This document shows, piece by piece, positions 1-56,010 of a stretch of DNA of 64,000 bases. The DNA is from a virus (Duplodnaviria > Heunggongvirae > Uroviricota > Caudoviricetes). The DNA lies in IMG/VR virus record IMGVR_UViG_3300032250_000269, positions 25,069-89,068 of that record. One strand, given 5' to 3'. Both the position numbers and the translations under genes were made by a program. Each line of letters begins with the position of its first letter. Position 1 is the stretch's first letter. Below the pieces are notes generated by a model that worked only from the letters and a program-made list of their open reading frames with translations, searched no databases and was not told the origin of the DNA.

Positions 1-1
1 G

Positions 2-163
2 GGTTATAACGTATGTTTATGGCCTGAGACAATTGAGCAAAAAGATATCAATGATATGGTTCTTGCTGATATGACACCACAAAAAATTGTTGACATTATC
101 AATGAGAATACATATAATGGTCTATTGGCTAAGGCAAAATTTACAACTTGGAAGAAAATTTAA
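2..163 (+). CDS. 3' end of a gene that begins upstream of the window (partial; product unknown)
   Basis: Open frame runs from the window edge to TAA at 161-163; next gene starts at 166. Confidence 0.4.
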   Translation, partial: GYNVCLWPETIEQKDINDMVLADMTPQKIVDIINENTYNGLLAKAKFTTWKKI

Positions 164-165
164 TA

Positions 166-314
166 TGGTCAAAGAATTTTTCAGAAATTTTCTATGTCGT
201 ATTGGTTGGCATTTATGGACACCGTGGGATACTCCTAGAGTAATGCCAGATGGCCGCTCACAACAATTTCGTGCATGTAAAAAATGTAATAAACAGCAAA
301 GGCATATATTCTGA
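166..314 (+). CDS. small Cys-rich protein (C-x3-C ... CKKC), possible Zn ribbon
   Basis: ATG overlaps upstream TAA (TAATATG); 49 aa; T4-like early small ORF. Confidence 0.4.
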
Positions 315-475
315 TGAGTGATGAATATCCAAAGTATTACAACGATGGTAATGTAAGAGTTGATGCTGATGGTAAGATATCCTTCAAGAATATGCAAGCT
401 GCACAGGAATATTTCTCTGCACCAGAAAAATATTATGAAAACATTATGAAGGATGATAATGATGACACAAGATGA
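314..475 (+). CDS. hypothetical small acidic protein
   Basis: ATGA start-stop overlap with previous ORF; 53 aa. Confidence 0.35.
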   Translation: MSDEYPKYYNDGNVRVDADGKISFKNMQAAQEYFSAPEKYYENIMKDDNDDTR

Positions 476-605
476 ACTTGACATTTGGGCTAGAGATTTA
501 GCCGAACGAATTAATAATACTCCTAACGGAGAGTTGATGGAATTACTTGCTGAAGTCGATCAATTCACCAAACAATTCAATATCATTTATAATGGAGGTG
601 AATAA
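462..605 (+). CDS. hypothetical small protein
   Basis: 47 aa ORF; stop TAA overlaps next ATG (TAATG). Confidence 0.35.
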   Translation: MTQDELDIWARDLAERINNTPNGELMELLAEVDQFTKQFNIIYNGGE

Positions 606-829
606 TGACTAAACCATATCCAGCATTATGTCGTGACTGTAAATGGTCACGTAAAGAAGATAATCGTGATTGGTATCTTCGTTGTGTCAACCCTGTGATT
701 AATGCCAATGACTCATGGGCTTTATCTAGAGGCACTAATGAATATGGATCAGACACGCAACAAGAACGTTCTAAAAAAGGATGGTTTGCCAAGTGTGGTA
801 TGAAGGGTAAGCTATGGGAACGCAAGTAA
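605..829 (+). CDS. hypothetical protein with CxxC-like pair (CRDCKW...RCVNP)
   Basis: 74 aa ORF, RBS GGAGGTGAATAATG. Confidence 0.45.
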   Translation: MTKPYPALCRDCKWSRKEDNRDWYLRCVNPVINANDSWALSRGTNEYGSDTQQERSKKGWFAKCGMKGKLWERK

Positions 830-954
830 CACATGAAGATGCCATGAGATGGCTTCGTCTAATGAAAGAATGCGCCTACAAACAAGAAGAGCGAGATTTG
901 ATTGATTATATTAAAGAAGTTCTTTGGCGCTATGAAGATATGAGGAATAGATAA
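814..954 (+). CDS. hypothetical small protein
   Basis: 46 aa ORF in a tight overlapping array. Confidence 0.3.
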   Translation: MGTQVTHEDAMRWLRLMKECAYKQEERDLIDYIKEVLWRYEDMRNR

Positions 955-1115
955 TGGGTAAGTGGAGTATCAAAGCAAAAGATTTTCGTCAATGGGTTAT
1001 CGATGCTGATGATGAGCATCTACAGGATTTTATTGATGAAATTGAGCGTGACATTATCAGCCTTGAACAGGATGATTTTTTTGGAACTGAAGGTTTGAAC
1101 AAGAGGTTTTCGTAA
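954..1115 (+). CDS. hypothetical small acidic protein
   Basis: 53 aa ORF; TAATG overlap on both ends. Confidence 0.35.
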   Translation: MGKWSIKAKDFRQWVIDADDEHLQDFIDEIERDIISLEQDDFFGTEGLNKRFS

Positions 1116-1197
1116 TGAGTAAAGTTGTATCGATGATCAAAGCGACTGATACTGGTCGTCGCTCTATAAAGCAAATGTTTGAAGAGGATAGTTTTGA

Positions 1198-2061
1198 ATG
1201 AGACAATATCATGATGCTTTGAGACAGATTTATCAAGATGGTATTGATCGTGGTGATCGTACCGGTGTTGGTACTCGTAGTCTATTCGGTCTACAGATGC
1301 GTTTTGACCTACAGGAAGGCTTCCCTGCTGTAACTACAAAGAAGCTTGCATGGAAGGCTGTTGTCAGCGAATTGCTTTGGTTCCTAGAAGGTTCAGATGA
1401 TGAGCGTAGACTTGCTGAAATCCATTATGGTAAGCCACGTGAAGAGCTAATCGGAAAGACTACAATATGGACTGCTAATGCTGATGCACAGGGTAAAGCA
1501 CTAGGTTATAGCAATACAGATGATCTTAAGCTTCTCGGACCTGTATATGGAGCGCAATGGCGTTGCTGGATTGATCCAGATGGAAATACTATTGACCAGA
1601 TTGAAAATTTGATTAATGGTATTAAGAATGATCCTAATGGTCGCCGTCATATTCTATCTGCATGGAATGTAGGTGAAATTGATGTTATGGCTCTACCACC
1701 TTGTCATTGTTTTGCACAGTTTTTTGTACATAATGGTAAGCTAAGCTGTCAAATGTATCAGCGTTCTGCTGATATGTTCCTTGGTGTACCTTTCAATATT
1801 GCCAGTTATGCATTACTTACTCATATGATCGCACAAGTGTGTGATCTGGATGTTGGTGAGTTGATCATGACTTTTGGTGATGCACATATATACAAGAACC
1901 ACTTTGAACAGGTGAAGACCCAACTTGAAAGAGAACCTTACAAGTTGCCAACACTTTGGTTGAATCCAAATATTGACAATATCGATTATTTTGATATGGA
2001 ACATATTGCGTTAAATAATTATGTTAGCCATGATACTATCAAAGCACCAATGGCTGTATGA
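1198..2061 (+). CDS. td: thymidylate synthase (ThyA/T4 Td type)
   Basis: Catalytic-Cys motif LPPCHCFAQF, DRTGVGT, YQRSADMFLGVPFNIASY (Asn of dUMP specificity), C-terminal KAPMAV; 287 aa. Confidence 0.9.
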   Translation: MRQYHDALRQIYQDGIDRGDRTGVGTRSLFGLQMRFDLQEGFPAVTTKKLAWKAVVSELLWFLEGSDDERRLAEIHYGKPREELIGKTTIWTANADAQGKALGYSNTDDLKLLGPVYGAQWRCWIDPDGNTIDQIENLINGIKNDPNGRRHILSAWNVGEIDVMALPPCHCFAQFFVHNGKLSCQMYQRSADMFLGVPFNIASYALLTHMIAQVCDLDVGELIMTFGDAHIYKNHFEQVKTQLEREPYKLPTLWLNPNIDNIDYFDMEHIALNNYVSHDTIKAPMAV

Positions 2062-2522
2062 TTGTTCTCGTGGTTGCCAGAGATATCTTTGGTCTTATTG
2101 GTAAAGATAACAAGCTTCCATGGCATTGTAAGGAAGACCTTCAGCGTTTTAAAAAAATCACAATGGGGAAAAGGATTGTGATGGGGAGGAAAACGTTTGA
2201 AAGTCTTCCTAAAATGCTACCGGGCAGACAACATATTGTTTTAACAAAAAATAAGGATTTTAAACATGAGGGTGTTGAAGTTTTTCATAGCATTGATGAT
2301 TTACTTACTGCCTATAAGGGCAAAGAAGATTTGTACGTCATCGGTGGAGCCGAAATATACAATCAATTCATAGATAAGTTTGATGTTATCGAAATGACTG
2401 TTATCATTGGAAATTATGAAGGCGATACATATTTTCCTGATATTCCAGTTCCAACTTATATGGAAATTGTGGAAGAAAGCAGTCAATATATGTTTTTGAG
2501 AATTCATAGGATTGATATATAA
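2058..2522 (+). CDS. frd: dihydrofolate reductase
   Basis: N-terminal MIVLVVA..GLIG..LPW and GKRIVMGRKTFESLP motifs; ATGA overlap with td. Confidence 0.9.
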   Translation: MIVLVVARDIFGLIGKDNKLPWHCKEDLQRFKKITMGKRIVMGRKTFESLPKMLPGRQHIVLTKNKDFKHEGVEVFHSIDDLLTAYKGKEDLYVIGGAEIYNQFIDKFDVIEMTVIIGNYEGDTYFPDIPVPTYMEIVEESSQYMFLRIHRIDI

Positions 2523-2891
2523 ATGGCTAAAGAACTATTATTCTCTATCACTGCCAATGACTGTGATTGGTCTTACACTCGTGGTACTGGTAAAGGCGGT
2601 CAGAAGAAAAACAAGACTTCATCTGCCGTACACTGTATGCATCGCCCTTCAGGCGCACATGGCTATAGTGAAGCTTCTCGCTCTCAGTTGGATAACAAGA
2701 GAGAAGCTTTTCGCAAGATGGCCGAAACAAAAGAATTCCAGAAATGGCATAAGATCGAAGCGGCAAGGCGCATGGGTACACTTGCCACTATCGAAGACAA
2801 TGTTAATCGTGAGATGAATAACATCACGGTTGAAATCAAAGACGAAAAAGGTCGCTGGACTAAAGTGGACAGGGACTATCCTTTAGAATAA
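2523..2891 (+). CDS. RF-1-domain GGQ protein, ArfB-like peptidyl-tRNA hydrolase
   Basis: GTGKGGQKKNKTSSAVH matches ArfB/YaeJ GAGGQHVNKTSTAIH; 122 aa. Confidence 0.7.
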   Translation: MAKELLFSITANDCDWSYTRGTGKGGQKKNKTSSAVHCMHRPSGAHGYSEASRSQLDNKREAFRKMAETKEFQKWHKIEAARRMGTLATIEDNVNREMNNITVEIKDEKGRWTKVDRDYPLE

Positions 2892-2919
2892 TCAAACAAA
2901 GAATAAGAGGCAATAATAA

Positions 2920-4728
2920 ATGACAACAGAAACCTATCTAGGTATTACTATCGATAAGAGTAGAGATGAACTTTTTGATGAGCTTGGAATAAAGCGTCTC
3001 AAAGAATCTTATATGAAAGATGATGAGACTTCACCGCAAGAACGTTTTGCCTTTGTATCAAAGGCATTCTCATCAAATCCAGAACACGCACAACGCCTCT
3101 ATGATTATGCCAGTAAACATTGGTTGTCATATGCTACCCCAATTCTATCATTTGGTCGTACAACTAATGGTATGCCAATTAGTTGCTTTCTTAACTATAT
3201 CGAAGATACTGCTGAAGGTCTAGTTAAGAATTATGAAGAAACCAGCCGCTTGTCTATGATGGGCGGTGGTGTTGGTATTGGATTTGGTATTCGTTCCGCT
3301 GGTAGCAAGTCAACTGGTGTTATGCCTCACCTTAAGACATATGATTCGGGTTCCATGGCATATCGTCAGGGCCGCACTCGTCGTGGTTCATATGCAACAT
3401 ATCTTAACATTAGTCACCCTGATATTCAGATGTATCTTGAGATGCGTAAGCCTACAGGTGATCCCAATATTCGTTGTTTAAATCTTCACCATGCTGTAAA
3501 TATTACAGATGACTTCATGGAAATCATCGAACGTTGTATGATTGATCCAGAGGCAAATGATGATTGGCATCTTCGTGATCCTCATACTGGTGAAATTCGT
3601 GATACTGTTTCTGCAAAGCATTTGTGGCAGTCATTACTTGAAATACGTATGCAAACAGGCGAACCCTATATTCATTATATTGATACTTCAAATCGTCTTA
3701 TGAAGGATTTTCAAAAGAAAAAGGGTCTACGTATCAATCAGAGCAATCTTTGCAGTGAAATTATTCTTCCAACAGATAAAGATCGCACTGCTGTTTGTTG
3801 CTTGTCTTCATTGAATTTAGAGTATTCTGATGAGTGGAGTAAGCCTGATATCATCGATCAATTTATTCGTGACGTAGCTGAAATGCTTGACAATGTTCTT
3901 CAATATTTTATTGATAATGCTGATCGTAAGGTTGCTCGTGCTATCTATTCTGCTAGTCAAGAACGTTCTATTGGTATTGGTGCTCTAGGTTTCCATGCTT
4001 ATCTACAGAAGAAGAATGTTGCATTTGAAAGTGCTGTTGCTAAAGCAATCAACATCAAAATTTTCAAATCAATAAATACTGCTCTAGAAAAGGCCAATCT
4101 TGAATTAGGCGCAGAACGTGGTGAAGCACCTGATGCTGTTGGTACTGGTCGTCGTTTCTCAAATTCAATGGCGATTGCTCCTAATGCATCCTCATCATTG
4201 ATTATGGGCAACACTTCTGCTTCTATTGAACCAATGCCAGCAAATGCATATCGTCAAGATACTTTGTCTGGTGCTTATTTGAATAAAAATAAGTATCTCG
4301 ACAAGATTATTCTTAAGGAAGCAGAAAACCAAAAGAATAATTGGTATGATGACGTTTGGTCAAGCATCATTGCAAATGATGGTTCTGTTCAACATTTGAA
4401 TTGGCTTGACGATCATACAAAATCAGTATATAAAACTGCAATGGAAATTGATCAACGTTGGATCATTGAACTTGCTGCTGATAGACAGCAATTTATTGAC
4501 CAAGCACAATCTCTTAATGTATTTTTTAGACCAACTTCTAACATTAAGTACCTACATGCGGTACACTTCCTTGCTTGGAAGCGTGGTCTTAAGACACTTT
4601 ATTACTGCCGCTCAGAAAAGATTGGCAAGGCAGATAAGGTCTCAAAGAAAATTGAACGTGAAGTCATTAAAGAAATCGATATGCAAAGCCTAGTAGACGG
4701 CGAAACATGTATTATGTGTGAAGGTTAA
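2920..4728 (+). CDS. nrdA: ribonucleotide reductase class Ia large subunit
   Basis: 602 aa; NLCSEI active-site motif, C-terminal Cys pair (CIMCEG); sits in a td-frd-nrd block. Confidence 0.9.
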   Translation: MTTETYLGITIDKSRDELFDELGIKRLKESYMKDDETSPQERFAFVSKAFSSNPEHAQRLYDYASKHWLSYATPILSFGRTTNGMPISCFLNYIEDTAEGLVKNYEETSRLSMMGGGVGIGFGIRSAGSKSTGVMPHLKTYDSGSMAYRQGRTRRGSYATYLNISHPDIQMYLEMRKPTGDPNIRCLNLHHAVNITDDFMEIIERCMIDPEANDDWHLRDPHTGEIRDTVSAKHLWQSLLEIRMQTGEPYIHYIDTSNRLMKDFQKKKGLRINQSNLCSEIILPTDKDRTAVCCLSSLNLEYSDEWSKPDIIDQFIRDVAEMLDNVLQYFIDNADRKVARAIYSASQERSIGIGALGFHAYLQKKNVAFESAVAKAINIKIFKSINTALEKANLELGAERGEAPDAVGTGRRFSNSMAIAPNASSSLIMGNTSASIEPMPANAYRQDTLSGAYLNKNKYLDKIILKEAENQKNNWYDDVWSSIIANDGSVQHLNWLDDHTKSVYKTAMEIDQRWIIELAADRQQFIDQAQSLNVFFRPTSNIKYLHAVHFLAWKRGLKTLYYCRSEKIGKADKVSKKIEREVIKEIDMQSLVDGETCIMCEG

Positions 4729-4731
4729 AAA

Positions 4732-4965
4732 ATGAAAGCAATTATTTACTCAAAGCCTGATTGTTCGTTTTGCGTTAAGGCAAAGGATTTTATGTTTGGC
4801 GCAGGAATCGAATATTCTGAGTACACTGTAGGCAAAGATATTATGTGGGAAACAGTACAAGCACGTGCAAAGACTGATGTTACAACTGTTCCGCAAATTT
4901 GGATCGATGGTCAGTATGTCGGGGGATATACTGAACTGGTTAAATGGTATACGGAGAACCTATAA
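4732..4965 (+). CDS. glutaredoxin-like redoxin (RNR electron donor)
   Basis: 77 aa, CSFC active site near N-terminus (KPDCSFCVKAK), lies between nrdA and nrdB. Confidence 0.75.
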   Translation: MKAIIYSKPDCSFCVKAKDFMFGAGIEYSEYTVGKDIMWETVQARAKTDVTTVPQIWIDGQYVGGYTELVKWYTENL

Positions 4966-5954
4966 TGGTAAAGAAAAACAAAGAACTTTCTATAACAGAT
5001 ACAAGGTCTTACTTCAAACCTTTTAATTATGCTTGGGCTTATGATGCTTGGTTAAAACACGAACAAAGTCACTGGTTGCACCTAGAGGTGCCGATGCTTG
5101 AAGACCTTCAGGATTGGAAGAAGTTTCTCACCGATGAAGAAAAGTATTTTCTTACAAATATTTTTCGCTTTTTTACACAAGGCGACATTGACGTTGCAGA
5201 CGGTTATGTAACAAACTATCTTCCTTATTTTCGTCAACCAGAAGTGCGTATGATGCTATTAGGATTTGCAGCACGTGAAGCACTTCATATTGCTGCTTAT
5301 TCACACCTGATCGAAACACTTGGTATGCCTGAAGCAACATATTCAGAGTTTCTTGAATATGAAGCAATGAAAGATAAGCACGATTATATTACAGAGTTGG
5401 CTTCTGCTAACGGAGATAAGCAAACAATTGCTGCTAATATTGCTGCATTCTCAGCCTTCACTGAAGGTATGCAGTTATTCTCTTCATTCATCATGCTATT
5501 GAACTTTCCTCGTCACGGTCGTATGAAGGGTATGGGTCAGATTGTCACATGGTCAATCGTTGATGAAACAATTCATGCCGAATCAATGATCAAGGTTTTC
5601 CGTACATACGTACAAGAGAACAACGAGATTTGGAATGATGATCTTAAGGCACGTATATATACTATTGCTGAAAAAATGGTAGAACTTGAAGATAAGTTCA
5701 TCGACCTTTCATTCAGTATGGGTCCAATGAAGGACTTAACTTCTGATGAAGTAAAGAAGTATATTCGTTATATTGCTGATCGTCGTTTGATTTCTCTTGG
5801 TCTAAAGGGAATCTTCAAGGTGAAGAGAAATCCTCTTCCATGGGTTGAAGGTATGATCAATGCTCCTACTCATACAAACTTCTTTGAGAACCGCTCTACA
5901 GATTATGCCAAGGGTGCTCTCACTGGTAGTTGGGAAGATGTGTGGGCTTCATAA
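4965..5954 (+). CDS. nrdB: ribonucleotide reductase class Ia small subunit
   Basis: Di-iron ligand motifs FTEGMQLFSSF, EAIHAESM-like (ETIHAESM); start chosen at TAATG overlap (track ORF starts 4944). Confidence 0.88.
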   Translation: MVKKNKELSITDTRSYFKPFNYAWAYDAWLKHEQSHWLHLEVPMLEDLQDWKKFLTDEEKYFLTNIFRFFTQGDIDVADGYVTNYLPYFRQPEVRMMLLGFAAREALHIAAYSHLIETLGMPEATYSEFLEYEAMKDKHDYITELASANGDKQTIAANIAAFSAFTEGMQLFSSFIMLLNFPRHGRMKGMGQIVTWSIVDETIHAESMIKVFRTYVQENNEIWNDDLKARIYTIAEKMVELEDKFIDLSFSMGPMKDLTSDEVKKYIRYIADRRLISLGLKGIFKVKRNPLPWVEGMINAPTHTNFFENRSTDYAKGALTGSWEDVWAS

Positions 5955-5966
5955 AAGGAATAAATA

Positions 5967-6146
5967 ATGTATATTACGTTAGATAATGATAGATGGGAAG
6001 ACTTAGGTAAAAGATATTTTGTTATAGAGTGGAAACGTAGAACAAATTCGACTGCTGTTGATCTTGTTCTTGAAGACGAGTGTGGAAATATTATTCGTCG
6101 TACAGAACCTCTGTCTTATATTATTGAGGAACGCTCAAATGATTGA
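5967..6146 (+). CDS. hypothetical small protein
   Basis: 59 aa, RBS AAAAGGAA. Confidence 0.35.
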   Translation: MYITLDNDRWEDLGKRYFVIEWKRRTNSTAVDLVLEDECGNIIRRTEPLSYIIEERSND

Positions 6147-6315
6147 GCCTTATGCTACTGTAGATGATGCTGTTGATGACATGGCAAATCAATACTGGAA
6201 AAATATTACTGTTTCCATGATTAATAGAGATATTGATTTGCTGTATGATTCTGCAATTTCGCTAAAAGCACTGGAAGAAGCCAGAATATCCGTTAAAAAT
6301 AAACTAAAAAAATAA
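6139..6315 (+). CDS. hypothetical small protein
   Basis: 58 aa, ATGA overlap. Confidence 0.35.
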   Translation: MIEPYATVDDAVDDMANQYWKNITVSMINRDIDLLYDSAISLKALEEARISVKNKLKK

Positions 6316-6326
6316 AGGAAACTAAA

Positions 6327-6473
6327 ATGAAGTGGTACGATTGTGGAAGCTGCTTATCAGAATTTCGTGTTGTGTCTGAAAGTGATGAACCAATTGAATA
6401 TTGCCCATTTTGTGGTTCTGTGATAGAAGATAAAGAAGACGAAGACGAAGAAGGCTATGATTACAATGAATAA
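6327..6473 (+). CDS. small Zn-ribbon protein (CGSC...CPFCG)
   Basis: 48 aa, two CxxC pairs, acidic tail. Confidence 0.4.
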   Translation: MKWYDCGSCLSEFRVVSESDEPIEYCPFCGSVIEDKEDEDEEGYDYNE

Positions 6474-6487
6474 ATAATACTCCTAAT

Positions 6488-6922
6488 GTGGAGTATTATA
6501 TGTGGTTATACAGAAATGAAGAAATAAATGAACTGCCAGAGGGGTGTGAAGCATTTGTTTACTTGATCACCAACAAAACAAATGGTATGATGTATGTTGG
6601 TAAGAAATTAGCAAAGTTTAAGGTCACAAAAGCACCACTTAAAGGCAAAACAAAGAAAAGACGTTCTACAAAAGAAAGTGATTGGCGAGAATATTGGGGT
6701 TCTAGTGATAGACTGAAATCCGATGTAGAAAAACTTGGAGAAGAAAATTTTACAAGAGAAATCTTGCATTTCTGTCCAAGTCGTGGTATTGCTAGTTATT
6801 TAGAAGCAAGAGAACAATTTGAGCGTAAAGTATTAGAAACCGATGATTACTATAATGGTATTATAAACGTAAGAATTGGTGGATCAAATATTTTAAAAGA
6901 GTACTTAAAAACTATAAGATAA
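6488..6922 (+). CDS. GIY-YIG homing endonuclease-like protein
   Basis: VYLITNKTNGMMYVGKK GIY-YIG motif; free-standing between metabolic genes. Confidence 0.7.
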   Translation: MEYYMWLYRNEEINELPEGCEAFVYLITNKTNGMMYVGKKLAKFKVTKAPLKGKTKKRRSTKESDWREYWGSSDRLKSDVEKLGEENFTREILHFCPSRGIASYLEAREQFERKVLETDDYYNGIINVRIGGSNILKEYLKTIR

Positions 6923-6936
6923 AGGGATTATATGAG

Positions 6937-7323
6937 TTGTCACAGATACTGGAACACAAGCATCTAATTGTACGAGCAGAACTATCCAATCCTCCAAAGT
7001 GCGCTGAAGCTATTCAGGATTGGATGAAAACTCTTGTAGATAAGATTAACATGAAAATTCTCATGGGACCGTATGCCGTATATTCGGATATGGTTGGTAA
7101 TAGAGGACTAACAGCCGTAACAATCATTGAGACGAGTCATTTGGCAATCCACGTCTGGGATGAAGTAGACCCTGCACTTATGCAGCTTGATGTATATACG
7201 TGCTCTACTTTAAACATTGAAGATGTATTTAGTGCGATTGAAGAATTTCAGCCAGTGAAAGTAGAATATAAGTATATCGATAGAGAGAATAGTATATTTG
7301 TTCTTGACAAGAAGATAAATTGA
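6937..7323 (+). CDS. pyruvoyl-dependent decarboxylase of the AdoMetDC (SpeH/SpeD class 1) family
   Basis: HLIVRAEL and GLTAVTIIETSHLAIHVWDE / LDVYTC align to SpeH ESHLTIHTWPE / IDLFTC; apparent TTG start after AAAGGGA. Confidence 0.7.
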   Translation: MSQILEHKHLIVRAELSNPPKCAEAIQDWMKTLVDKINMKILMGPYAVYSDMVGNRGLTAVTIIETSHLAIHVWDEVDPALMQLDVYTCSTLNIEDVFSAIEEFQPVKVEYKYIDRENSIFVLDKKIN

Positions 7324-7328
7324 GTGTA

Positions 7329-7373
7329 TATACCCTGTAAGGTATAAAATAAAAATATACCTTACAGGGTATA
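7329..7373. repeat. perfect 18-bp inverted repeat with 9-nt spacer (operator or hairpin)
   Basis: TATACCCTGTAAGGTATA aaataaaaa TATACCTTACAGGGTATA between the AdoMetDC-like gene and the basic-protein gene. Confidence 0.8.
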
Positions 7374-7409
7374 ACAGTAGTAATGTTAATATGAAAGGTG
7401 ATGTTAATT

Positions 7410-7679
7410 ATGGGTAAGAAGAGAATTCGTAGTAAGAAGGTATCAGGCGGTGAACGCCGTTCTATCGGTCGCTGGGTAATCAACGCTGTTCGTCGTGACA
7501 AGTCAGAATTTGATAAGGCACTAGATAAGCTTGCTGCTTGGAAGGCCGGTAAGAATCCTTGGATTACTATTGCTGGCCCATCGTCTAATCAGCGTTTCAT
7601 TAGAGTACGTGCAAATATTCTCTATGGAAACCCAAAGACTGCTATGGCAAATATCTACGGTAATAAGACTGAAGAATGA
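7410..7679 (+). CDS. small highly basic protein (possible nucleic-acid binding)
   Basis: Lys/Arg-rich 89 aa; downstream of an 18-bp perfect inverted repeat. Confidence 0.5.
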   Translation: MGKKRIRSKKVSGGERRSIGRWVINAVRRDKSEFDKALDKLAAWKAGKNPWITIAGPSSNQRFIRVRANILYGNPKTAMANIYGNKTEE

Positions 7680-7990
7680 TATACATTGTTGATATCGACC
7701 AAACCATTTGTACTACCGAAAAGAAAAATGGTAAATGGGATTATGAAAACTCAACTCCCATATATAATAGAATAGATCATATAAATCAACTATATGATCT
7801 AGGTCACACGATTATCTATTGGACTTCAAGAGGAAACTCTACCGGTATTGATTGGTCAGAGCTTACAAAGAACCAATTAGATGGTTGGGGATGTAAATAT
7901 CATGAAGTTAAACTCGGAAAACCTGAATACGATGTATGGGTTGACGATAAAGCTTATAATGATGAACAATTTTTTGATGAGTATCTATGA
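7676..7990 (+). CDS. HAD-superfamily phosphatase-like protein (DxDxT motif IVDIDQT)
   Basis: N-terminal DIDQT motif; 104 aa; first gene of the sugar cassette. Confidence 0.45.
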   Translation: MIYIVDIDQTICTTEKKNGKWDYENSTPIYNRIDHINQLYDLGHTIIYWTSRGNSTGIDWSELTKNQLDGWGCKYHEVKLGKPEYDVWVDDKAYNDEQFFDEYL

Positions 7991-8946
7991 AAAAAGCGAT
8001 TATTACTGGTGCGGCTGGATTTATTGGCCGTGTTCTTCAGCTAAAACTGAAAGAAGCTGGTTATTATGTTTATGCTATTGATAAAAGACATGATGACGTA
8101 TCGTCTGATGAATATTATCAAATAAACTATTCTTTAATCGCAAACTATGAATACATTAACATTCATGATATCGATGTTATTTTTCATCTTGGCGCAAACA
8201 GCCTACTTGGTCCTTCAGTGACCGATCCCTTGACATATTATCAAAATAATGTTGGTAATATGTCAGAAATGCTAAACAATCTAGTAAAACAAAAGTGGAA
8301 GGGCGTTTTTATATTCGCCTCTTCTGCTGCAACTTATGGTGATCTTAATACTTCATCTCTTCTTGATGAGAATATGGCAGGAAATGCTATAAATCCATAT
8401 GGATCAACTAAAGTTGTTGGTGAGATGATGCTTAAAGAAACGTGTGAAGCATACGGTTTCAAGGCATACTCCATGCGATTTTTTAATGTCGCTGGTTCCT
8501 ATAAAAATGTTGGTCAAGATTTAAATCAACCACACATTTTAACCAAAATGTCCTTATCCTCTCTACAAAACGATACATTTTATATCAACGGAAACACGTA
8601 CAATACATATGATGGTACGTGTGTTCGTGACTATATTCATGTGTCTGATGTTTGTGATGCATTGATGGCCGCAGAAACGTCACTATACACTATGCCAGAA
8701 GGTCACTATGATGCCTTTAATGTTTGTACTGGTAATGCAGTATCAAACAAACAGTTGGCTGAGAAGTTTATTGAAAATTATCCTTTACAATATGACTTCA
8801 AAGAAATTCGACTTGGCGATCCGGGATATTTGATTGGAAATCCAAGTAAGTTATCTTCTATATGGAAGACCGGCCCACAATATCAAATTGATGATATTAT
8901 CAAAACACATTATAACTATGCATTATATGCAAATGAAAGGAAGTAA
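7987..8946 (+). CDS. NAD-dependent sugar epimerase/dehydratase (SDR; HldD-like heptose epimerase candidate)
   Basis: N-terminal AIITGAAGFIGRVL Rossmann motif; 319 aa. Confidence 0.72.
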   Translation: MKKAIITGAAGFIGRVLQLKLKEAGYYVYAIDKRHDDVSSDEYYQINYSLIANYEYINIHDIDVIFHLGANSLLGPSVTDPLTYYQNNVGNMSEMLNNLVKQKWKGVFIFASSAATYGDLNTSSLLDENMAGNAINPYGSTKVVGEMMLKETCEAYGFKAYSMRFFNVAGSYKNVGQDLNQPHILTKMSLSSLQNDTFYINGNTYNTYDGTCVRDYIHVSDVCDALMAAETSLYTMPEGHYDAFNVCTGNAVSNKQLAEKFIENYPLQYDFKEIRLGDPGYLIGNPSKLSSIWKTGPQYQIDDIIKTHYNYALYANERK

Positions 8947-10901: not shown

Positions 10902-11448
10902 ACTAATTCGTAACACGCATACTGCAACAGTTCAGTATGGTTTTGAATCTATTAACCAAAAGCAATTTCAAGAAGCGGCAGATTGCATTGTCAATGCCAT
11001 TTATAATGGAAAGACAATCTTTACGGTTGGTAATGGCGCTTCTGCCGCAATCGCACAGCATTGGGCATGTGACTATACCAAAGGGTGCCGTCCTTATGGA
11101 AATCCTCGTGTTATCTCATTATCAACCAACATTCCGTTGATGACTGCGATTTCCAATGATATTTCATACGATGAAGTATATGCTTATCAGGTAAATGCTC
11201 TTGGTGATTGGGAAGATGTACTCATCACAATTTCTTCTAGCGGAAACTCACCAAACGTGGTAAGAGCCATTGAAGCAGCAAAGAAAAGAAACATGAAGAC
11301 CATCGCATTGACAGGTTTTCAGGGCGGCAAGTCAAGAGAACTTGCTGACTACCCCATTCATGTTGATGTTCAAGAGTATGAGGCTGCTGAAGATGTTCAT
11401 CAGGCGATTATGCATATGATTGCCAAATATATTAGGGTTGTTCTCTAA
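10852..11448 (+). CDS. gmhA: phosphoheptose (sedoheptulose-7-P) isomerase, SIS domain
   Basis: TVGNGASAAIAQHWACDY and ISSSGNS SIS motifs; start uncertain (10852 or 10867, overlaps hddA end). Confidence 0.8.
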   Translation: MFLFHMKEPKLYIESLELIRNTHTATVQYGFESINQKQFQEAADCIVNAIYNGKTIFTVGNGASAAIAQHWACDYTKGCRPYGNPRVISLSTNIPLMTAISNDISYDEVYAYQVNALGDWEDVLITISSSGNSPNVVRAIEAAKKRNMKTIALTGFQGGKSRELADYPIHVDVQEYEAAEDVHQAIMHMIAKYIRVVL

Positions 11449-11449
11449 A

Positions 11450-12562
11450 ATGATTAAGACTGCGAAGAAAAAAGCTACTCCTCGTACCACAAAGTTTGCT
11501 GATCAACGTTGGATGGGTTCTGAACCTGAAGAGAACGTTTCTATCACTGATGGCTCTGATATGCGCTATCATAATGCTTTGTATTGGTATGGTTATTACT
11601 ACGACACTGATCAAGCAAAAGATTGGCTTCTTGAATATATGAAGAAGAATAGCTATGATGCAAGTATCATAGCTAGTGTCAAAACTGCCCCTGCATCCCG
11701 TACACCTACTACAATTGGCTGGATGGCCAAGTTGATGATGCGTGGTTGGATTCTTCCTGAAAAGTCCATGCAATTTTTCAATAGTCGCATTCAAGAAAAT
11801 GCTTCGTTTGGTAAGCGTGAAAAGAAGGAAGACGATTCTCCAAAGGTTGTTGTCAACATCCAAGAAAAGATTGCTGTTAAGGCTCGTGAGCTTCGTGCAA
11901 AGCTTGACGAACATATTGATGCATTCGTTTTTGATGGTTTGGATAACAATTTTTCACTTTACAGTTTTCTACAGACAGAAAGTCCAACTCCTGTTGGAAT
12001 CAATCTGATTGTGTCTTACGTCAATTCTTTGTACCAAGATTTGGTAAATAAGGAAGGATATGAAGACATTCCTGCTGCCAAGTACAAGTCATGGCTTAAG
12101 TTTCATAAGGCTCTTGTAGACGATGCAGAGCGTTTTCATTCGAACATGAAGATCACTCGACAGGTTCGTAAGCCACGTGCTATCAAGATCAAGCCAGCCG
12201 CTAAGCTGGTTGAAAAGATGAAGTACAAGAAGGAAGATACTGAGCAAAAGCTAGTTAGTATCAATCCTGTTGACATTATTAAGGCTCAAACTTTGTGGGT
12301 GTATAATACTAAATATAGACAGCTATCAGTGTATCATGCCATTGATGAAGGCGGTCTATCAGTTAAGGGTACTACCATCACACAGTTTGATGAGAAAAAG
12401 TCTGTGACAAAGCGTTTACGCAAGCCACAAGAAGTACTACCCGAATTGCTTGCTGCTGGTAAAATTGCTCTTAGAACGTTTATGGAACGTATTAAGACGA
12501 ATTCAACGGTACCAACTGGTCGCATTAACGAAGAAGTAGTACTATTGAGGATAATGAAATGA
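11450..12562 (+). CDS. hypothetical protein
   Basis: 370 aa ORF starting right after gmhA stop; no motif recognised. Confidence 0.5.
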   Translation: MIKTAKKKATPRTTKFADQRWMGSEPEENVSITDGSDMRYHNALYWYGYYYDTDQAKDWLLEYMKKNSYDASIIASVKTAPASRTPTTIGWMAKLMMRGWILPEKSMQFFNSRIQENASFGKREKKEDDSPKVVVNIQEKIAVKARELRAKLDEHIDAFVFDGLDNNFSLYSFLQTESPTPVGINLIVSYVNSLYQDLVNKEGYEDIPAAKYKSWLKFHKALVDDAERFHSNMKITRQVRKPRAIKIKPAAKLVEKMKYKKEDTEQKLVSINPVDIIKAQTLWVYNTKYRQLSVYHAIDEGGLSVKGTTITQFDEKKSVTKRLRKPQEVLPELLAAGKIALRTFMERIKTNSTVPTGRINEEVVLLRIMK

Positions 12563-23247: not shown

Positions 23248-24435
23248 ATGAACTACAAATTCCCTATCATTACGAATATCAGCGACGTACTTCCTGCTAT
23301 TGAAGGTAGGGATGAGTTCGTTGTGGCTGTCAAGGAAGGCTATACTGTCATCAACTACAATGTGATGATGGCTGATACGTTTCCTGCTATTCACAGCGAT
23401 TTCTTGGACGCTGGTTGGCATGAAGATGTAAATGCAGCACTTCGTCGTGAATGTCGTGGTATCATCTTTGATACTGCTACTGGCAACATCATTCGTCGTC
23501 CGTTCCATAAATTTTTTAATGTATCGGAAAGAGAAGAAACCCAAGTAAATGTGATTGATTTGTCTCGTCCTCATGCTATTCTTGATAAGCTTGACGGGAG
23601 CATGATATGCCCATTTATTGTCAACGGACAAATGATTTGGGGTACCAAGATGGGTGCTACTGATGTGTCAAAGCCTGTTGAGGAGTTTGTGAAGAACAAT
23701 CCTGAGTATATTCGCTTTGCTGAAGAAGCGATTGCAAATGAATGGACTCCTATCTTTGAATGGTGCTCACGAAAGCAGCGTATTGTTCTAGATTATTTTG
23801 AAGATCAATTGGTTCTCACTGCTATGCGCCACCTTAACACTGGTTCGTATGCCCTTCATGATAATCTGGTAGAATTGGGTAAGGCATTCGAAATTCCTGT
23901 AGTTCGTGCATTCGAACCGCAGACTGATATGAAGGCATTCATCGAATACGTTCGTGATCTAGAAGACCTTGAAGGTTATGTGGTTCGTTTTGGCGATGGT
24001 CATATGATCAAGCTGAAGTGTGATTGGTATGTCCAAATTCATAAGGCTAAGGAAGCTATTCTACAGGATCGCAACATTGTTGAGTTGATCCTTGACGAAA
24101 AGCTGGACGATATCAAGGCACATCTCCCTGCTGAAGATCGTGATCGTCTGTCTCAGTTTGAAAATGACTTCAATGTTGAAGTGGCTTGTAGGTGTATTGA
24201 GATTGAAAGCATTCTGAAGAACATTGAGGCTGATGGTGTTGATCGCAAGACGTTTGCTCTTGAAATTGCTCCTAAGTTTGATAATTTTCTTCGTGCATCA
24301 GTATTTACCTGTTGGGATGATAAGTCCAAGGTATATAATACTGTACGCAACACAATTCGCAACAATCTTGGTCGTACAGTCAAGTACGAAGCAATTCGTG
24401 ATGTTTGGTTTCCGGGGGTAGTTTTCAATGGTTAA
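23248..24435 (+). CDS. rnlA: RNA ligase (T4 Rnl1-like nucleotidyltransferase)
   Basis: Motif I LDKLDGSM (KxDG) and size (395 aa) similar to T4 RNA ligase 1. Confidence 0.65.
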   Translation: MNYKFPIITNISDVLPAIEGRDEFVVAVKEGYTVINYNVMMADTFPAIHSDFLDAGWHEDVNAALRRECRGIIFDTATGNIIRRPFHKFFNVSEREETQVNVIDLSRPHAILDKLDGSMICPFIVNGQMIWGTKMGATDVSKPVEEFVKNNPEYIRFAEEAIANEWTPIFEWCSRKQRIVLDYFEDQLVLTAMRHLNTGSYALHDNLVELGKAFEIPVVRAFEPQTDMKAFIEYVRDLEDLEGYVVRFGDGHMIKLKCDWYVQIHKAKEAILQDRNIVELILDEKLDDIKAHLPAEDRDRLSQFENDFNVEVACRCIEIESILKNIEADGVDRKTFALEIAPKFDNFLRASVFTCWDDKSKVYNTVRNTIRNNLGRTVKYEAIRDVWFPGVVFNG

Positions 24436-25067: not shown

Positions 25068-25290
25068 GTTTATTCTTGCTAAAGATGATGAAAATCAGGG
25101 TCCATATCAATGGACCAATGTCAATCGCCGTGACTATTTCGGTTGGGAGGGTGCATGGGCAGAATCATTTGCCTCTGAAGAATGGGCTATTTTTGCTGCT
25201 GAACAACGCACAAAAGAAGGTTGGATTGTTGACTGCTATCATAACGTAGGGTATACGGTGAATAGCAATTATGGAGAAGATAATGCGTAA
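25060..25290 (+). CDS. hypothetical protein
   Basis: 76 aa. Confidence 0.4.
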   Translation: MAKFILAKDDENQGPYQWTNVNRRDYFGWEGAWAESFASEEWAIFAAEQRTKEGWIVDCYHNVGYTVNSNYGEDNA

Positions 25291-25768
25291 GTGTACAATT
25301 CTTGTTGGTGTTCCTGCTTCTGGCAAGTCAACATGGCTTAAAAATAATTATGAAAATATGGAGTTTGGTTCGATTGTTGCATCAACCGACAATATTATTG
25401 AAGAATTGGCTGATATGTTTGGATTTACATACAATGATGTTTTTTCAGAAACTATCAGGTTTGCTGATATGGTTATGAACAACAATTTGATTGTAGCAGC
25501 AGAAGATGGTGTAGATATTTACGTTGATCGTACTAATCTTTCTCAAAAGTCTCGTCGTCATTTTATTAAAACTCTCAAGCCATATGGGTATACTTTTGAT
25601 GATGTGGTTTTTGAAACTCCTGAAAAGGATGAATGGAAACGCCGTTTGAATTCTCGTTGTGGAAAGTCTATTCCAAATGATGTTATTGATAGGATGGTGA
25701 ATAGCTACGAAATTCCTTTGGAAAACGAAGGGTTTGAAAAAATCACTTTTATTGAAAATAATGTTTGA
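25283..25768 (+). CDS. P-loop kinase (polynucleotide-kinase-like kinase domain)
   Basis: Walker A GVPASGKST; about 161 aa. Confidence 0.6.
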   Translation: MRKCTILVGVPASGKSTWLKNNYENMEFGSIVASTDNIIEELADMFGFTYNDVFSETIRFADMVMNNNLIVAAEDGVDIYVDRTNLSQKSRRHFIKTLKPYGYTFDDVVFETPEKDEWKRRLNSRCGKSIPNDVIDRMVNSYEIPLENEGFEKITFIENNV

Positions 25769-38372: not shown

Positions 38373-38390
38373 ACAAGTAAGGTTTAATAA

Positions 38391-40028
38391 ATGTTAACTT
38401 TTATCAACTATATGTTAATGATCGAAGCCAAGGTAGATGACTTGGCAGCAAAGCACCCTGAACATGCAGAAGCGATTCGTGCTTATCATGCTGCTGATCC
38501 ATCACCAACCAAGAAGTTCCTACCTTGGTTAGTAAAGCAACATATTGCTGGTAATGTAACTCCTAATGATGTAAGACTTGGCTCTACTTTACAACACTTC
38601 GACAAAGTAAAGCATCAACTTGATAACAAAGATCATAGTGGTTATCATTATAATGATCTTGCTAATGCTGTTGGTGATCGTGTCAAAGCTAAACTTGAAG
38701 CTGATGCAAAAAAGAATTCTGTAGAAACCATTCACAAAGAACCAAGCGGTATAACAGCACAACAAATCAAGACCAAAGAAGCATCACAAGACCTTTATGG
38801 AGGTGGAGAAGCTCGTGGTGGTAAGAAAGGTTGTGCACGTGGTACAAACTGGTGCGTTTCTGCTCGTCCCTCTTCTCATGGTGATGGAAATCTTTTTGGA
38901 CATTATGGTCATATGTATACTATACATGATTCAAATGATGAAAATGCACCATATGCTGTGCATCCTTTTTATTATGGTGGTCCGACAATCACTTCTAGAC
39001 ATAATGATGGAGACAAACCACATACACAAGTATTGGCACAGAAACCACACTTAAAAAAAGCTGTGAATGCTATTCTAAATCATTCTGCAAAACATATCGA
39101 TTCATTAATTAATTCAGATGATGATGATGAAGTTTATCATGCCATTAGCCATCCACGTGCGACACCAGAGCATATTGATAAAGCATTAAGTCATACCGAT
39201 TCTGATGTTCGTAATACTGCTGCTAGTCATCCCAATGCATCTCCTGCAAATATTCAAAAGGCTATGAAAGGCAGTGCTTCCATGCAAGAAGAAGCAATCA
39301 AAAATCCAAATGCTACTCATGCTCAAATTCAAAATGCATTGGAGAATGGTCATGGTGGTTTAGTTCGTGCTGCTATTGATAATCCAAATCTATCATCAAG
39401 CCATATTCATCATATTTTGGATCATGGTTCTGAAATACACCGTATCGTAGCTTTAAATCATGCTAATGCAACGGAAGATCATATTACTAAGGCATTAGAT
39501 GATGTTAATACAAGTGTTCGTTTTGCTGCTTTAAACCATCCAAAAGTCACACCTGATCATATTACTAAAGCATTGAGTAATGATGATCCAGAGGTTCGTG
39601 CTGCTGCTATACGTCATCAAAATGCAACACCAGATCATATCACAAAGGCATTGAATGACGATGATCCAGATGTTCGTGCTGCTGCTATACGTCATCAAAA
39701 TGCTACACCTGATCATATTACTAAAGCATTAGATGATCCCATTCGTGTAGTTCGTCTATCTGCTATAAATCATCCAAATGCAACACCAGAGCATATTACT
39801 AAAGCACTAAATGATTCTCACCCATATGTTCGTGCTGCTGCTATAAATCATCCAAATGCAACACCAGATCATATCACTAAAGCACTAAATGATCCTGATT
39901 TTCAAGTTCGCAAAGCCGCTATTAAAAACCCAAATCGTACACCAGAGCATATTGCTAAAGCATTGAATGACGATGATGGAATAGTTCGTGATGCTGCTGA
40001 CGTTGCTCGTATCCAACAAAATCGATGA
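38391..40028 (+). CDS. paralog of the preceding HEAT-repeat protein
   Basis: Near-identical N-terminal domain, divergent repeat number. Confidence 0.6.
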   Translation: MLTFINYMLMIEAKVDDLAAKHPEHAEAIRAYHAADPSPTKKFLPWLVKQHIAGNVTPNDVRLGSTLQHFDKVKHQLDNKDHSGYHYNDLANAVGDRVKAKLEADAKKNSVETIHKEPSGITAQQIKTKEASQDLYGGGEARGGKKGCARGTNWCVSARPSSHGDGNLFGHYGHMYTIHDSNDENAPYAVHPFYYGGPTITSRHNDGDKPHTQVLAQKPHLKKAVNAILNHSAKHIDSLINSDDDDEVYHAISHPRATPEHIDKALSHTDSDVRNTAASHPNASPANIQKAMKGSASMQEEAIKNPNATHAQIQNALENGHGGLVRAAIDNPNLSSSHIHHILDHGSEIHRIVALNHANATEDHITKALDDVNTSVRFAALNHPKVTPDHITKALSNDDPEVRAAAIRHQNATPDHITKALNDDDPDVRAAAIRHQNATPDHITKALDDPIRVVRLSAINHPNATPEHITKALNDSHPYVRAAAINHPNATPDHITKALNDPDFQVRKAAIKNPNRTPEHIAKALNDDDGIVRDAADVARIQQNR

Positions 40029-55111: not shown

Positions 55112-55147
55112 GTTCAACCCCTGCCTAAAAAACAGGGGTTGAACTTT
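55112..55147 (+). terminator. hairpin terminator
   Basis: GTTCAACCCCTG-CCTAAAAAA-CAGGGGTTGAAC perfect 12-bp stem, weak T tract. Confidence 0.6.
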
Positions 55148-55176: not shown

Positions 55177-55818
55177 ATGAAAACTTTTAGTGCATTTATT
55201 TCAGAAAATCGTGAAAACAACACACGTAAGACACAGGTTGCCACAACTGGTGGCACCTATAAAAAAACAGGCGAATTCCTTAAGGATAAGCTTGCTCCTA
55301 AGTCAAAGATCATCAGTATTGGTGCTGGTTTAGATCAGACACGTGAAGGTCTTCATGTAGGGCTTGGCGAAAATCATGGTCATACTATTCATGATCATGA
55401 ACCACACCCTGAAGGACGTAAGGTTAAGCCAGAATACACAGATGCATCACGCATTCCAAAGAATGGATATCATGCTGCTGTATCACATAACGTTTTGAAT
55501 GTTGTCGAGCCACATGTACGTGAACACGTAATGCATTCTATCTTCAATTCCGTTAAGGAAGGTGGTCATGCTGTTATTGGCACACGTAAATGGAGTGGCG
55601 ATATCAACACAAACAAGAACTTTGAAAAGGGTGATGAACCTAAATCAATGTGGGTCAAGAGAGGAAATACCACATCATATCAAAAAGGATATGATGGTAA
55701 TGAACTGAAGGACTATGTTGAAGATTATGCAAAGCGCAATGGTCATAAGGTTGAAGTTAAAAATTTAAACGGTATTGCAAAAAGTGGTGTTCACGTAAAA
55801 ATTATAAAAAAGGGTTGA
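55177..55818 (+). CDS. His-rich protein with CTS-like N-terminus
   Basis: MKTFSAFISE N-terminus; 213 aa. Confidence 0.5.
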   Translation: MKTFSAFISENRENNTRKTQVATTGGTYKKTGEFLKDKLAPKSKIISIGAGLDQTREGLHVGLGENHGHTIHDHEPHPEGRKVKPEYTDASRIPKNGYHAAVSHNVLNVVEPHVREHVMHSIFNSVKEGGHAVIGTRKWSGDINTNKNFEKGDEPKSMWVKRGNTTSYQKGYDGNELKDYVEDYAKRNGHKVEVKNLNGIAKSGVHVKIIKKG

Positions 55819-55869
55819 CACCCACCTCAGAATCGCATATTAAGAGTTCATACAGCGATGGAGGAAAGT
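55815..55869 (+). promoter_or_regulatory. consensus promoter
   Basis: TTGACA CCCACCTCAGAATCGCA TATTAA GAGTTCATACA. Confidence 0.5.
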
Positions 55870-56010
55870 ATGAAGACACGTAATCCGATTGCCCGCTCTC
55901 TTCGTAGCGCACATCTTAAACCTAAGATTGTTCGTGCAAAGAAGGGCAAAGGTTCTTACCGCCGTAAGAAAAAAGTTACGGCGGTTGACTTTCTTCAGCG
56001 AATCGCTTAA
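55870..56010 (+). CDS. small basic peptide, possibly ArfA-like ribosome-rescue factor
   Basis: 46 aa; KKGKGSYRRKKK resembles the E. coli ArfA KGKGSYMRKGK segment (recalled, not searched). Confidence 0.4.
   Translation: MKTRNPIARSLRSAHLKPKIVRAKKGKGSYRRKKKVTAVDFLQRIA

Follow-up and report, generated by a model that had tools for sequence, protein, structure and literature searches.

Escherichia coli ArfA (YhdL; PF03889; PDB 5mgp, 5u4i and 5h5u) is a small basic protein in which the segment KKGKGSY-x-RK is preceded, 19 residues upstream, by an N-x-I-A motif, and whose N-terminal segment, including A18, contacts and activates release factor 2 (RF2). ArfB (YaeJ; NF006718; PDB 4v95 and 7jss), a protein of ~140 residues, is a codon-independent hydrolase whose basic C-terminal tail probes the empty mRNA channel of the ribosome, and PrfH (TIGR03072; PDB 7sa4 and 9mor) joins a catalytic GGQ domain to an N-terminal domain that recognises a damaged decoding site. 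In this study, we analysed a stretch of 64,000 nucleotides (the window) that corresponds to positions 25,069 to 89,068 of the IMG/VR record IMGVR_UViG_3300032250_000269, from a phage of the Caudoviricetes, and which contains one gene for an ArfA-like peptide and another for a stand-alone protein with the GGQ motif of release factors, here termed mini-RF. We favour, with moderate confidence, the view that this phage encodes two independent translation-rescue-type factors, an ArfA homologue and mini-RF, that act in the manner proposed below.

Both kinds of gene are already annotated in phages and in databases. An RF-1-domain protein is a routine phage annotation (PMC9583779), g10 of Citromicrobium phage RXM is annotated as ArfA (PMC8953757), and gp30 of pelagiphage HTVC027P has the same annotation and is transcribed during infection (PMC12753301). 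The latter two, along with a protein from a Caudoviricetes metagenome-assembled genome (MAG; DAU75279.1), resemble the peptide studied here in having the Pfam ArfA domain and in belonging to phages of Alphaproteobacteria, a comparison made by annotation only; the three genes are known from annotation or transcriptomics, and an in-frame hairpin or any regulation has not been reported for them. No experimental characterisation of a phage ArfA or of a phage RF-1-domain protein was found in the limited literature collection that we searched. What appears to be unreported is that a phage arfA keeps a terminator within its open reading frame (ORF), with covariation; that a phage arfA falls within a branch of short family members from Alphaproteobacteria and viruses, despite a survey that counted none in Alphaproteobacteria (PMC11633108); and that the mini-RF gene often lies within the tRNA arrays of phages.

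The ArfA-like peptide and its relatives

The features of the ArfA-like gene are as follows:

55870..56010, + strand: gene of the ArfA-like peptide (46 residues, MKTRNPIARSLRSAHLKPKIVRAKKGKGSYRRKKKVTAVDFLQRIA), with a Pfam ArfA match above the cutoff
55860..55865, + strand: GGAGGA, a Shine-Dalgarno sequence 4 nt before the ATG at 55870, read from the sequence
55958..55995, + strand: hairpin within the ORF, ACCGCCGTAA-GAAAAAAG-TTACGGCGGT (55958–55985), with the T-rich tail TGACTTTCTT, found by a terminator scan and covering codons 30–39

An earlier reading of this DNA without database searches (the sequence-only reading) had described this ORF and the mini-RF ORF, each with a characteristic motif, and both ORFs and both motifs are present as it described them. 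The motif of the peptide is KKGKGSYRRKKK, at residues 24–35 of 46, which aligns without gaps to residues 33–44 of E. coli ArfA. That reading had called the peptide ArfA-like from a short motif, and the call is borne out by the Pfam ArfA profile (PF03889), against which the peptide scores 28.9 bits (28.6 bits for a 50-residue form) with a cutoff of 25.5 and an E-value of ~1e-6, as well as by the E. coli spacing of its motifs, the in-frame hairpin and the name that JGI gives to an identical protein, ‘stalled ribosome alternative rescue factor ArfA’. The 50-residue form would begin at an alternative in-frame ATG at 55858. The ATG at 55870, also the start given by the sequence-only reading, is the likelier of the two because GGAGGA lies upstream of it, the PHROG and DUF7230 profiles both start at its methionine, and the homologue P0122 has 46 residues.

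Further likeness to ArfA was evident from structures and from motif spacing. Chains of E. coli ArfA make up the best six PDB matches, aligned over 31 residues without gaps (query NPIARSLRSAHLKPKIVRAKKGKGSYRRKKK), with a pairwise E-value of only ~0.2. The N-x-I-A of the phage peptide sits 19 residues before KKGKGSY, a spacing equal to that in E. coli and Colwellia-type ArfA, and the pattern N-x-[IL]-A-x-x-[LV] with the same spacing is common to the viral, alphaproteobacterial and gammaproteobacterial forms. A profile search built from the viral variants retrieved at least 450 proteins of 34–70 residues, nearly all with PF03889, among them a Caudoviricetes MAG protein and a Mesorhizobium protein that NCBI names ArfA. 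The ORF is a real gene, since it has these relatives and since the nucleotide differences in the KKGKGS codons of its close relatives are synonymous third-position changes.

The peptide differs from E. coli ArfA in its length (46 versus 72 residues), with ~9 fewer N-terminal residues and no long hydrophobic C-terminal tail, and in its score, 28.9 versus 89.5 bits. When the profile was calibrated, E. coli ArfA and a Colwellia-type ArfA (78.4 bits) matched it over its whole length, within a gammaproteobacterial range of 78–90 bits, and the alphaproteobacterial and viral forms scored 27–38 bits, matching only from profile positions 12–23 to 42–44. By the curated threshold the phage peptide is thus a member of ArfA, but one of a divergent short branch, as it matches only the C-terminal half of the profile. 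Several results weigh against a simple equation with ArfA. The match is limited to profile positions 19–42 of 44 and its score, unlike those of the gammaproteobacterial ArfAs, is close to the Pfam cutoff; a search of NCBIfam with the peptide gave zero matches; the N-terminal segment (profile positions 1–18) is left unaligned by the profile, with A18 of E. coli lying opposite R9; and a 2024 survey found arfA in 0 of 2,376 Alphaproteobacteria (PMC11633108).

Alphaproteobacteria nevertheless figure among the closest relatives. Ten related viral loci were found in IMG/VR, and the nearest bacterial relatives are from Pelagibacteraceae and other Alphaproteobacteria, with those of Pseudoalteromonas and Colwellia coming next. 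The Pfam cutoff is passed by short ArfA-like genes of Pelagibacteraceae, Rhodospirillales, Thalassospiraceae, Denitrobaculum and Microvirga (loci L105–L145); those of the Rhodospirillales, Thalassospiraceae and Denitrobaculum MAGs, of Mesorhizobium (RWB95602.1) and of SAR11 are up to 65% identical to the phage peptide and share its short architecture and its range of Pfam scores (27–38 bits). Three designs of arfA could be distinguished: an in-frame terminator (the Rhodospirillales type), a plain stop codon without a hairpin (SAR11), and a hairpin that spans the stop codon of an ORF ending in ...ESYLIAA (Pseudoalteromonas and Colwellia). Among isolated phages, a tblastn search with the 50-residue peptide gave only a weak match in Caulobacter phage Cr30, which was confirmed as a real homologue; this search was insensitive owing to a low-complexity filter and a short query, and absences from it are soft. 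The Cr30 gene (NC_025422.1, ~11139–11291, minus strand; 1447–1599, plus strand, in locus L147) is an unannotated small ORF that ends in ...KRNPIAKALRSSHLQPKIVKPRKGKGSFTRKGK, scores 27.2 bits against the Pfam cutoff of 25.5 and lies two genes upstream of an RNA ligase gene; its stop codon is a normal one that overlaps the start of the next gene, and there is no hairpin.

On a ribosome that has reached the 3' end of a truncated mRNA and stalled there, the basic KKGKGSYRRKKK segment would, by analogy with E. coli ArfA, enter the empty mRNA channel, and the N-terminal part of the peptide would then recruit host RF2, whose GGQ loop would release the nascent peptide. A different role may be considered, in which the peptide binds the mRNA channel and is not a rescue factor, being instead an inhibitor or modulator that, for example, blocks tmRNA-SmpB or ArfB or parks vacant ribosomes. 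Such a role would suit the conservation of only the channel-binding half of the profile, the RF2-activating half being divergent with an arginine as the equivalent of A18, and most Alphaproteobacteria already possess both ArfB and transfer-messenger RNA (tmRNA; PMC11633108). We regard it, however, as decidedly unlikely, given that N-x-[IL]-A-x-x-[LV] and the exact 19-residue spacing are kept across viral, alphaproteobacterial and gammaproteobacterial forms, and that a retained hairpin of the non-stop-mRNA kind best suits a factor tied to tmRNA capacity.

The hairpin within the arfA-like gene

In bacterial arfA genes a stem-loop leads, through termination or RNase III cleavage, to an mRNA without a stop codon, and the synthesis of ArfA is under the control of tmRNA (reviewed in PMC8012679). 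The phage gene is like that of E. coli in having a stem-loop within its ORF and an mRNA that is expected to lack a stop codon, although its hairpin has a short, 10-bp stem of the terminator type directly after the GSY codons. The stem is rich in G+C and has a folding energy of -19.1 kcal/mol (z = -3.95), with none of 200 shuffled sequences as stable. Comparable hairpins number only six in the 64-kb window, so that ~0.013 would be expected by chance within the 141-nt ORF; three of the six have a T-rich tail, two of these being intergenic and the third the hairpin in the arfA-like ORF.

The hairpin appears in related loci in a manner that points to its maintenance as RNA. In an alignment of seven distinct close variants, 98.8% of the cells of a 13-pair helix are paired, compared with 22–65% in control registers obtained by sliding the alignment, and two pairs show compensatory changes (UA to CG and AU to GC). 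A 6-nt insertion in loci L003 and L012 makes the stem longer, and the residues encoded by the stem vary while pairing is kept (RRKKKVTAV, RRDKKVAAV, RRSNKKIVTAV). Unrelated hairpins occupy the same position elsewhere: in L004 and L005 the hairpin is GGCCCC-GCG-GGGGCC-TTTTT, after which the ORF goes on for 40 hydrophobic codons, and in L009 the stop codon lies within the T-run. The stop codon itself has been lost in L002, where the ORF reads through into the next gene.

Terminators were also found in alphaproteobacterial arfA genes (L110, L112, L115, L129, L137 and others), in which they begin 6–10 nt past the GSY codons; those of the Rhodospirillales type share with the phage gene both the position of the hairpin and the core CGCCG...CGGCG. 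They differ from the phage gene in having strong U-runs and ORFs that run on for 40–170 codons, whereas the phage ORF ends 8 codons past the stem, and the SAR11 versions differ in having no hairpin. Taken together, the in-frame hairpin matches, at the level of sequence, the non-stop-mRNA design that is a hallmark of the ArfA family, and an end of the transcript before the stop codon at 56008–56010 is predicted from it.

Under this design, many arfA-like transcripts would end at the hairpin and its T-rich tail, before the stop codon, and synthesis of the peptide would finish in a non-stop complex from which tmRNA would tag and destroy it for as long as tmRNA capacity lasts. Were tmRNA to become saturated, for example through the mass cleavage of mRNA in infection or by host nucleases, the ArfA-like peptide would be expected to accumulate. 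Transcripts that read through would give the full 46-residue form, which is ~5 residues longer than the truncated form of ~41 residues, and for this reason the regulation is probably partial. Termination is the favoured route, RNase III processing being less likely for a stem of only 10–13 bp, given what is generally known of the substrates of that enzyme.

Other features of the gene speak against this design. The T-tract after the stem (TGACTTTCTT) is weak and a co-oriented gene begins 30 nt past the arfA-like stop codon; therefore, termination may be inefficient. The residues past the hairpin (55986–56010) are conserved, being VDFLQRIA in the window and VDFLLRIA, VDSLLRIA or VDFFLRAA among L002, L003, L012 and L022, which suggests that the full-length form is also made, and the ArfA-like genes of SAR11 and Cr30 have a normal stop codon and no hairpin. 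These same points, along with the difference of only ~5 residues between the truncated and full products, would be explained if the hairpin were a mere terminator or attenuator of a two-gene unit made up of the arfA-like gene and the gene upstream of it, or a relic of a bacterial donor gene, with no tmRNA-linked role in the phage. We consider that explanation somewhat doubtful, since compensatory changes and a stem-extending insertion preserve the stem while the encoded residues change, L004/L005 and L009 have independent, unrelated hairpins in the corresponding place, and L002 tolerates the loss of its stop codon. In addition, a terminator could equally sit between the genes, 30 nt downstream, in the manner of the other two T-tailed hairpins. 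The tmRNA-linked design remains our preferred reading of the hairpin. The post-hairpin residues are loosely like the ...YLIAA with which gammaproteobacterial ArfA ends and the LAA that closes the ssrA tag, and it is a matter of speculation that the read-through product may bear a degron at its C-terminal end.

The stand-alone GGQ protein

The second gene lies near the start of the window:

2523..2891, + strand: gene of mini-RF, a stand-alone GGQ (release-factor domain 3) protein of 122 residues; Pfam RF-1

Mini-RF contains GKGGQKKNKTSSAVH and matches the Pfam RF-1 profile (PF00472) with 55.5 bits (cutoff 35; E = 6.7e-15). It is a full-length member of the phage family PHROG 3122, annotated as ‘RF-1 domain peptide chain release factor’ (E = 6.3e-27), with residues 1–117 covering profile positions 19–133 of 136, and phage members of that family such as gp202 of Mycobacterium phage Catera and gp209 of McGee are of the same size. 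The AlphaFold2 model (predicted local distance difference test, pLDDT, 81) shows a flexible GGQ loop surrounded by three strands, with three helices and a beta-hairpin at the terminus. The best fold matches of the model are to domain 3 of RF2, RF1, mtRF1, PrfH and C12orf65, with ArfB, YaeJ and ICT1 far lower, and the best PDB sequence match is to PrfH (E = 3.4e-9), the ArfB-type structure 2jy9 being the weakest listed (0.0088).

The sequence-only reading had called this protein ArfB-like, which is correct as regards its small size and GGQ domain but not as regards the family. Like ArfB and ICT1, mini-RF is small with a GGQ motif, and the GGQ-NKT-S-A-H region is similar over 32 residues, the extent of the BLASTP alignment with E. 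coli ArfB (a reference sequence identical to PDB 4v95_AY). The ArfB profile search that the reading had proposed gave only 28.5 bits against a cutoff of 100 for NF006718, with residues 7–39 matching profile positions 10–42 of 140. The basic C-terminal tail of ArfB is absent, the last 40 residues having a net charge of -2 (0 to -7 in 21 members of the family) versus +13 in ArfB, and the modelled fold ranks ArfB-type structures far below domain 3 of RF1, RF2 and PrfH.

Other families were rejected on similar grounds. Mini-RF aligns with the GGQ domain of PrfH, with 44.2 bits against a cutoff of 166.65 for TIGR03072 (positions 104–188 of 200), and the N-terminal ~100 residues, which form the domain recognising the damaged decoding site, are absent. 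Nor does it belong to a module of the PrfH-RtcB type: there is no RtcB2-type partner or other conserved neighbour, the flanking genes are frd and nrdA, and the RNA ligase of the phage is of the Rnl1 type and 20 kb away. It is likewise not an RF1 or RF2, being 122 rather than ~360 residues long, scoring 45 bits against cutoffs of 370–423 over only positions ~207–283, and lacking domain 1 and domain 2/4 with its PxT or SPF motif. Mini-RF is therefore a bare release-factor domain 3, neither ArfB nor PrfH.

A total of 819 relatives of mini-RF, which mark its ORF, too, as a real gene, were found in metagenomic databases, together with 120 loci in IMG/VR on contigs of up to 545 kb, and 209 records of isolated phages, nearly all of them cluster C mycobacteriophages, encode proteins with 42–47% identity over 90–98% of its length. 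Other miniature phage RF-domain proteins, of 64–164 residues, are present in a viral structure library. In 21 mini-RF homologues, GGQ, NK(T)SSAVH, HxPSG and RSQ..N are invariant, as are W75, R83, G85, G110 and W112 in the C-terminal part. The invariance of both the catalytic motifs and these C-terminal residues suggests that the enzyme is active and carries an additional module under constraint. The most likely activity of mini-RF is the hydrolysis of peptidyl-tRNA in a ribosome-dependent and codon-independent manner, by which it would free stalled ribosomes or tRNAs.

The location of the gene varies considerably between phages. In the window, it stands between frd (2058–2522) and nrdA (2920–4728) in a td-frd-X-nrdA-nrdB cluster, where its ATG follows without a gap on the stop codon of the dihydrofolate reductase gene (TAAATG). 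In many uncultured phages it is inside tRNA arrays: 27 of 60 viral loci have tRNA genes no further than 6 kb from it, with at least five of them in 20 of these loci, and a tmRNA gene is near it in one further locus, with the qualification that some of the 60 are near-duplicates of each other. The cluster C mycobacteriophages also carry ~30 tRNA genes and a tmRNA gene. Near the mini-RF gene of locus L045 there is a tRNA with the anticodon CTA (4783–4857), of the amber-suppressor type and called Pyl by ARAGORN, and near that of L091 is a tmRNA (11405–11773) with the tag ANDNFAPLALAA.

Three results count against a rescue role for mini-RF. All-against-all clustering of ORFs from 80 loci gave no conserved partner gene (the best family was present in 14 of 80), no sensor domain was found in the protein itself, and the mycobacteriophage genes sit in the replication module, between the DNA polymerase and recombinase genes, and not among tRNAs. 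Conceivably, mini-RF acts on split large subunits that carry peptidyl-tRNA, or on dropped-off peptidyl-tRNA, as mtRF-R/C12orf65 does with MTRES1, and not on 70S non-stop complexes. Its lack of an mRNA-channel sensor would be in keeping with this, and frequent embedding in tRNA arrays would suit the recycling of tRNAs. We think such a substrate unlikely, as there is no MTRES1-like or other conserved partner gene nearby and the helical C-terminal extension of mini-RF is not basic. Action on free peptidyl-tRNA, in the manner of Pth, is itself unlikely because catalysis by GGQ domains is confined to the peptidyl-transferase centre. The freeing of stalled ribosomes or tRNAs is retained as the proposed role of mini-RF.

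Two genes in one large phage genome

The arfA-like gene and the mini-RF gene are 53 kb apart, and from the available sequences there is no evidence in support of their being a conserved pair. With tblastn, the ArfA-like peptide had no match, at the limited sensitivity of that search, in the 209 isolated phage genomes that have mini-RF, and mini-RF was not found in the ArfA-like-bearing phages Cr30, RXM and HTVC027P, the latter two carrying ArfA by published annotation. There was no overlap in contig names between the viral ArfA-like loci and the mini-RF loci, and no ArfA-like ORF within 6 kb of 80 mini-RF genes, all of these absences being subject to limited sensitivity.

These data bear on whether the two proteins form one phage-autonomous system, in which the ArfA-like peptide would sense the empty channel and recruit mini-RF instead of host RF2. 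Both genes are in one genome, mini-RF has no sensor of its own, and its C-terminal beta-hairpin (E103–106 and E112–115, with G110 and W112 invariant) could be a docking surface. A single system is nonetheless very improbable, as the genes are far apart, the families were not found together in any of the comparisons above, and ArfA binds domain 2/4 of RF2, a contact seen in the published structures of ArfA and RF2 on the ribosome and one for which mini-RF lacks the domain. Equally remote is the prospect that mini-RF is a new kind of rescue or termination factor brought to the ribosome by a separate adaptor, possibly the ArfA-like peptide, which would constitute a two-piece system independent of host RF2 and switched on by way of the non-stop arfA transcript when host tmRNA is overwhelmed, for instance by defence nucleases acting on mRNA or tRNA. 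Two independent factors remain the reading that we prefer.

The surroundings of the arfA-like gene suggest a small transcription unit, with these additional features:

55177..55818, + strand: gene of a 213-residue protein, immediately preceding the arfA-like gene in all related contigs
55112..55144, + strand: intergenic terminator-like hairpin, GTTCAACCCCTG-loop-CAGGGGTTGAAC followed by TTTAATAAAT, after the gene of a GapR-like protein
55815..55843, + strand: sigma-70-like promoter motif TTGACA-17 nt-TATTAA, read by eye, weak, and overlapping the stop codon of the 213-residue protein gene

The gene of the 213-residue protein is probably co-transcribed with the arfA-like gene, and the T-tailed hairpins at 55112–55144 and 55958–55985 bracket exactly these two genes, the former being proposed as the upstream edge of the unit. 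The promoter motif was not reported by a promoter scan because its -10 hexamer ends in A and not T. No match to the 213-residue protein was found in Pfam, PHROG or PDB; by eye, it has a possible motif of the S-adenosylmethionine-binding kind, IISIGAGLD. In related contigs (L012–L024), a glycosyltransferase of the TAGT family (PF20691) is encoded a few genes downstream of arfA, and the same downstream place in the window is taken by tRNA genes and a gene for a TilS-like protein.

Almost all genes of the window are on the + strand. Metagenomic contigs of up to 192,694 bp carry an identical copy of mini-RF, and we take the phage genome containing the window to be ~193 kb and rich in tRNA genes. 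At the DNA level, megablast searches of GenBank phages with positions 1–8000 and 54000–58000 gave only a thymidylate-synthase segment with 73% identity or no match. The phage is probably large and lytic and its host an alphaproteobacterium, as judged from the nearest relatives of its Rnl1 ligase, which are from phages of Alphaproteobacteria (Ruegeria and Roseobacter phages, Caulobacter phage Cr30 and Sinorhizobium phage phiN3), from the GapR-like gene and from the nearest bacterial ArfA-like genes. Sample names suggest a freshwater habitat.

The sequence-only reading had placed the two genes in a toolkit for stalled ribosomes with 30 tRNAs, an RNA ligase, a kinase and TilS. We counted 28 tRNA genes, and no tmRNA was found in the window by ARAGORN or Rfam; the three other components are present:

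23248–24435: RNA ligase of the T4 Rnl1 type
25271–25768: P-loop kinase (AAA_33)
57824–58477: TilS-like PP-loop protein

The window also encodes thymidylate synthase, dihydrofolate reductase, ribonucleotide reductase, T4 RNase H, PhoH, a calcineurin-type phosphoesterase and a UvrD-type helicase. The idea of a toolkit fits the tRNAs, ligase, kinase, phosphoesterase and TilS-like protein, as well as the frequent presence of the GGQ family in phage tRNA arrays, and it fails to find support in that the two factors are neither linked nor co-distributed. A role of the toolkit in counter-defence is speculation.

Several other observations were made in the window. A GOLLD RNA (RF02032) at 48783–49262 (+ strand) covers the full Rfam model with 172 bits (cutoff 150), and a tRNA-Lys(CTT) gene (48853–48927) is nested inside the match. 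Between 48853 and 58598 there are four tRNA-Lys genes (two CTT, two TTT) and three genes of the tRNA-Met(CAT) type, close to the TilS-like gene, whose proximity is the reason that one or more of the CAT tRNAs may be tRNA-Ile2 needing lysidine. Directly upstream of the tRNA region (40723–43316, + strand) is a pair of NAD-salvage genes, encoding an NMNAT/Nudix (NadR-like) protein and nicotinamide phosphoribosyltransferase (NAMPT). Two adjacent, very large HEAT/LRV-repeat proteins of 726 and 545 residues are encoded at 36192–40028 (+ strand), with a 603-residue protein that has no Pfam match upstream of them. Two genes of the GIY-YIG (SegE-like) homing-endonuclease type (6488–6922 and 52060–52707, + strand), one of which has NUMOD3, lie one beside the nucleotide-metabolism cluster and the other within the tRNA region.

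Ribosome rescue is usually seen as host housekeeping, whereas here a phage has two rescue-type genes that accompany a near-complete set of tRNAs and genes for RNA repair. If the ArfA homologue is active and gated by tmRNA, the phage would have a built-in sensor of, and response to, floods of truncated mRNA, which the phage's shutting off of host mRNA or the nucleases of abortive infection are expected to cause. The ArfA branch of short members from Alphaproteobacteria and viruses, which keeps the in-frame terminator, has been missed by surveys in which Alphaproteobacteria have no arfA and would, if its members prove to be true ArfAs, extend the range of RF2-dependent rescue. The mini-RF family, in turn, is abundant in large phages and represents a tractable candidate for a new recruitment mechanism.

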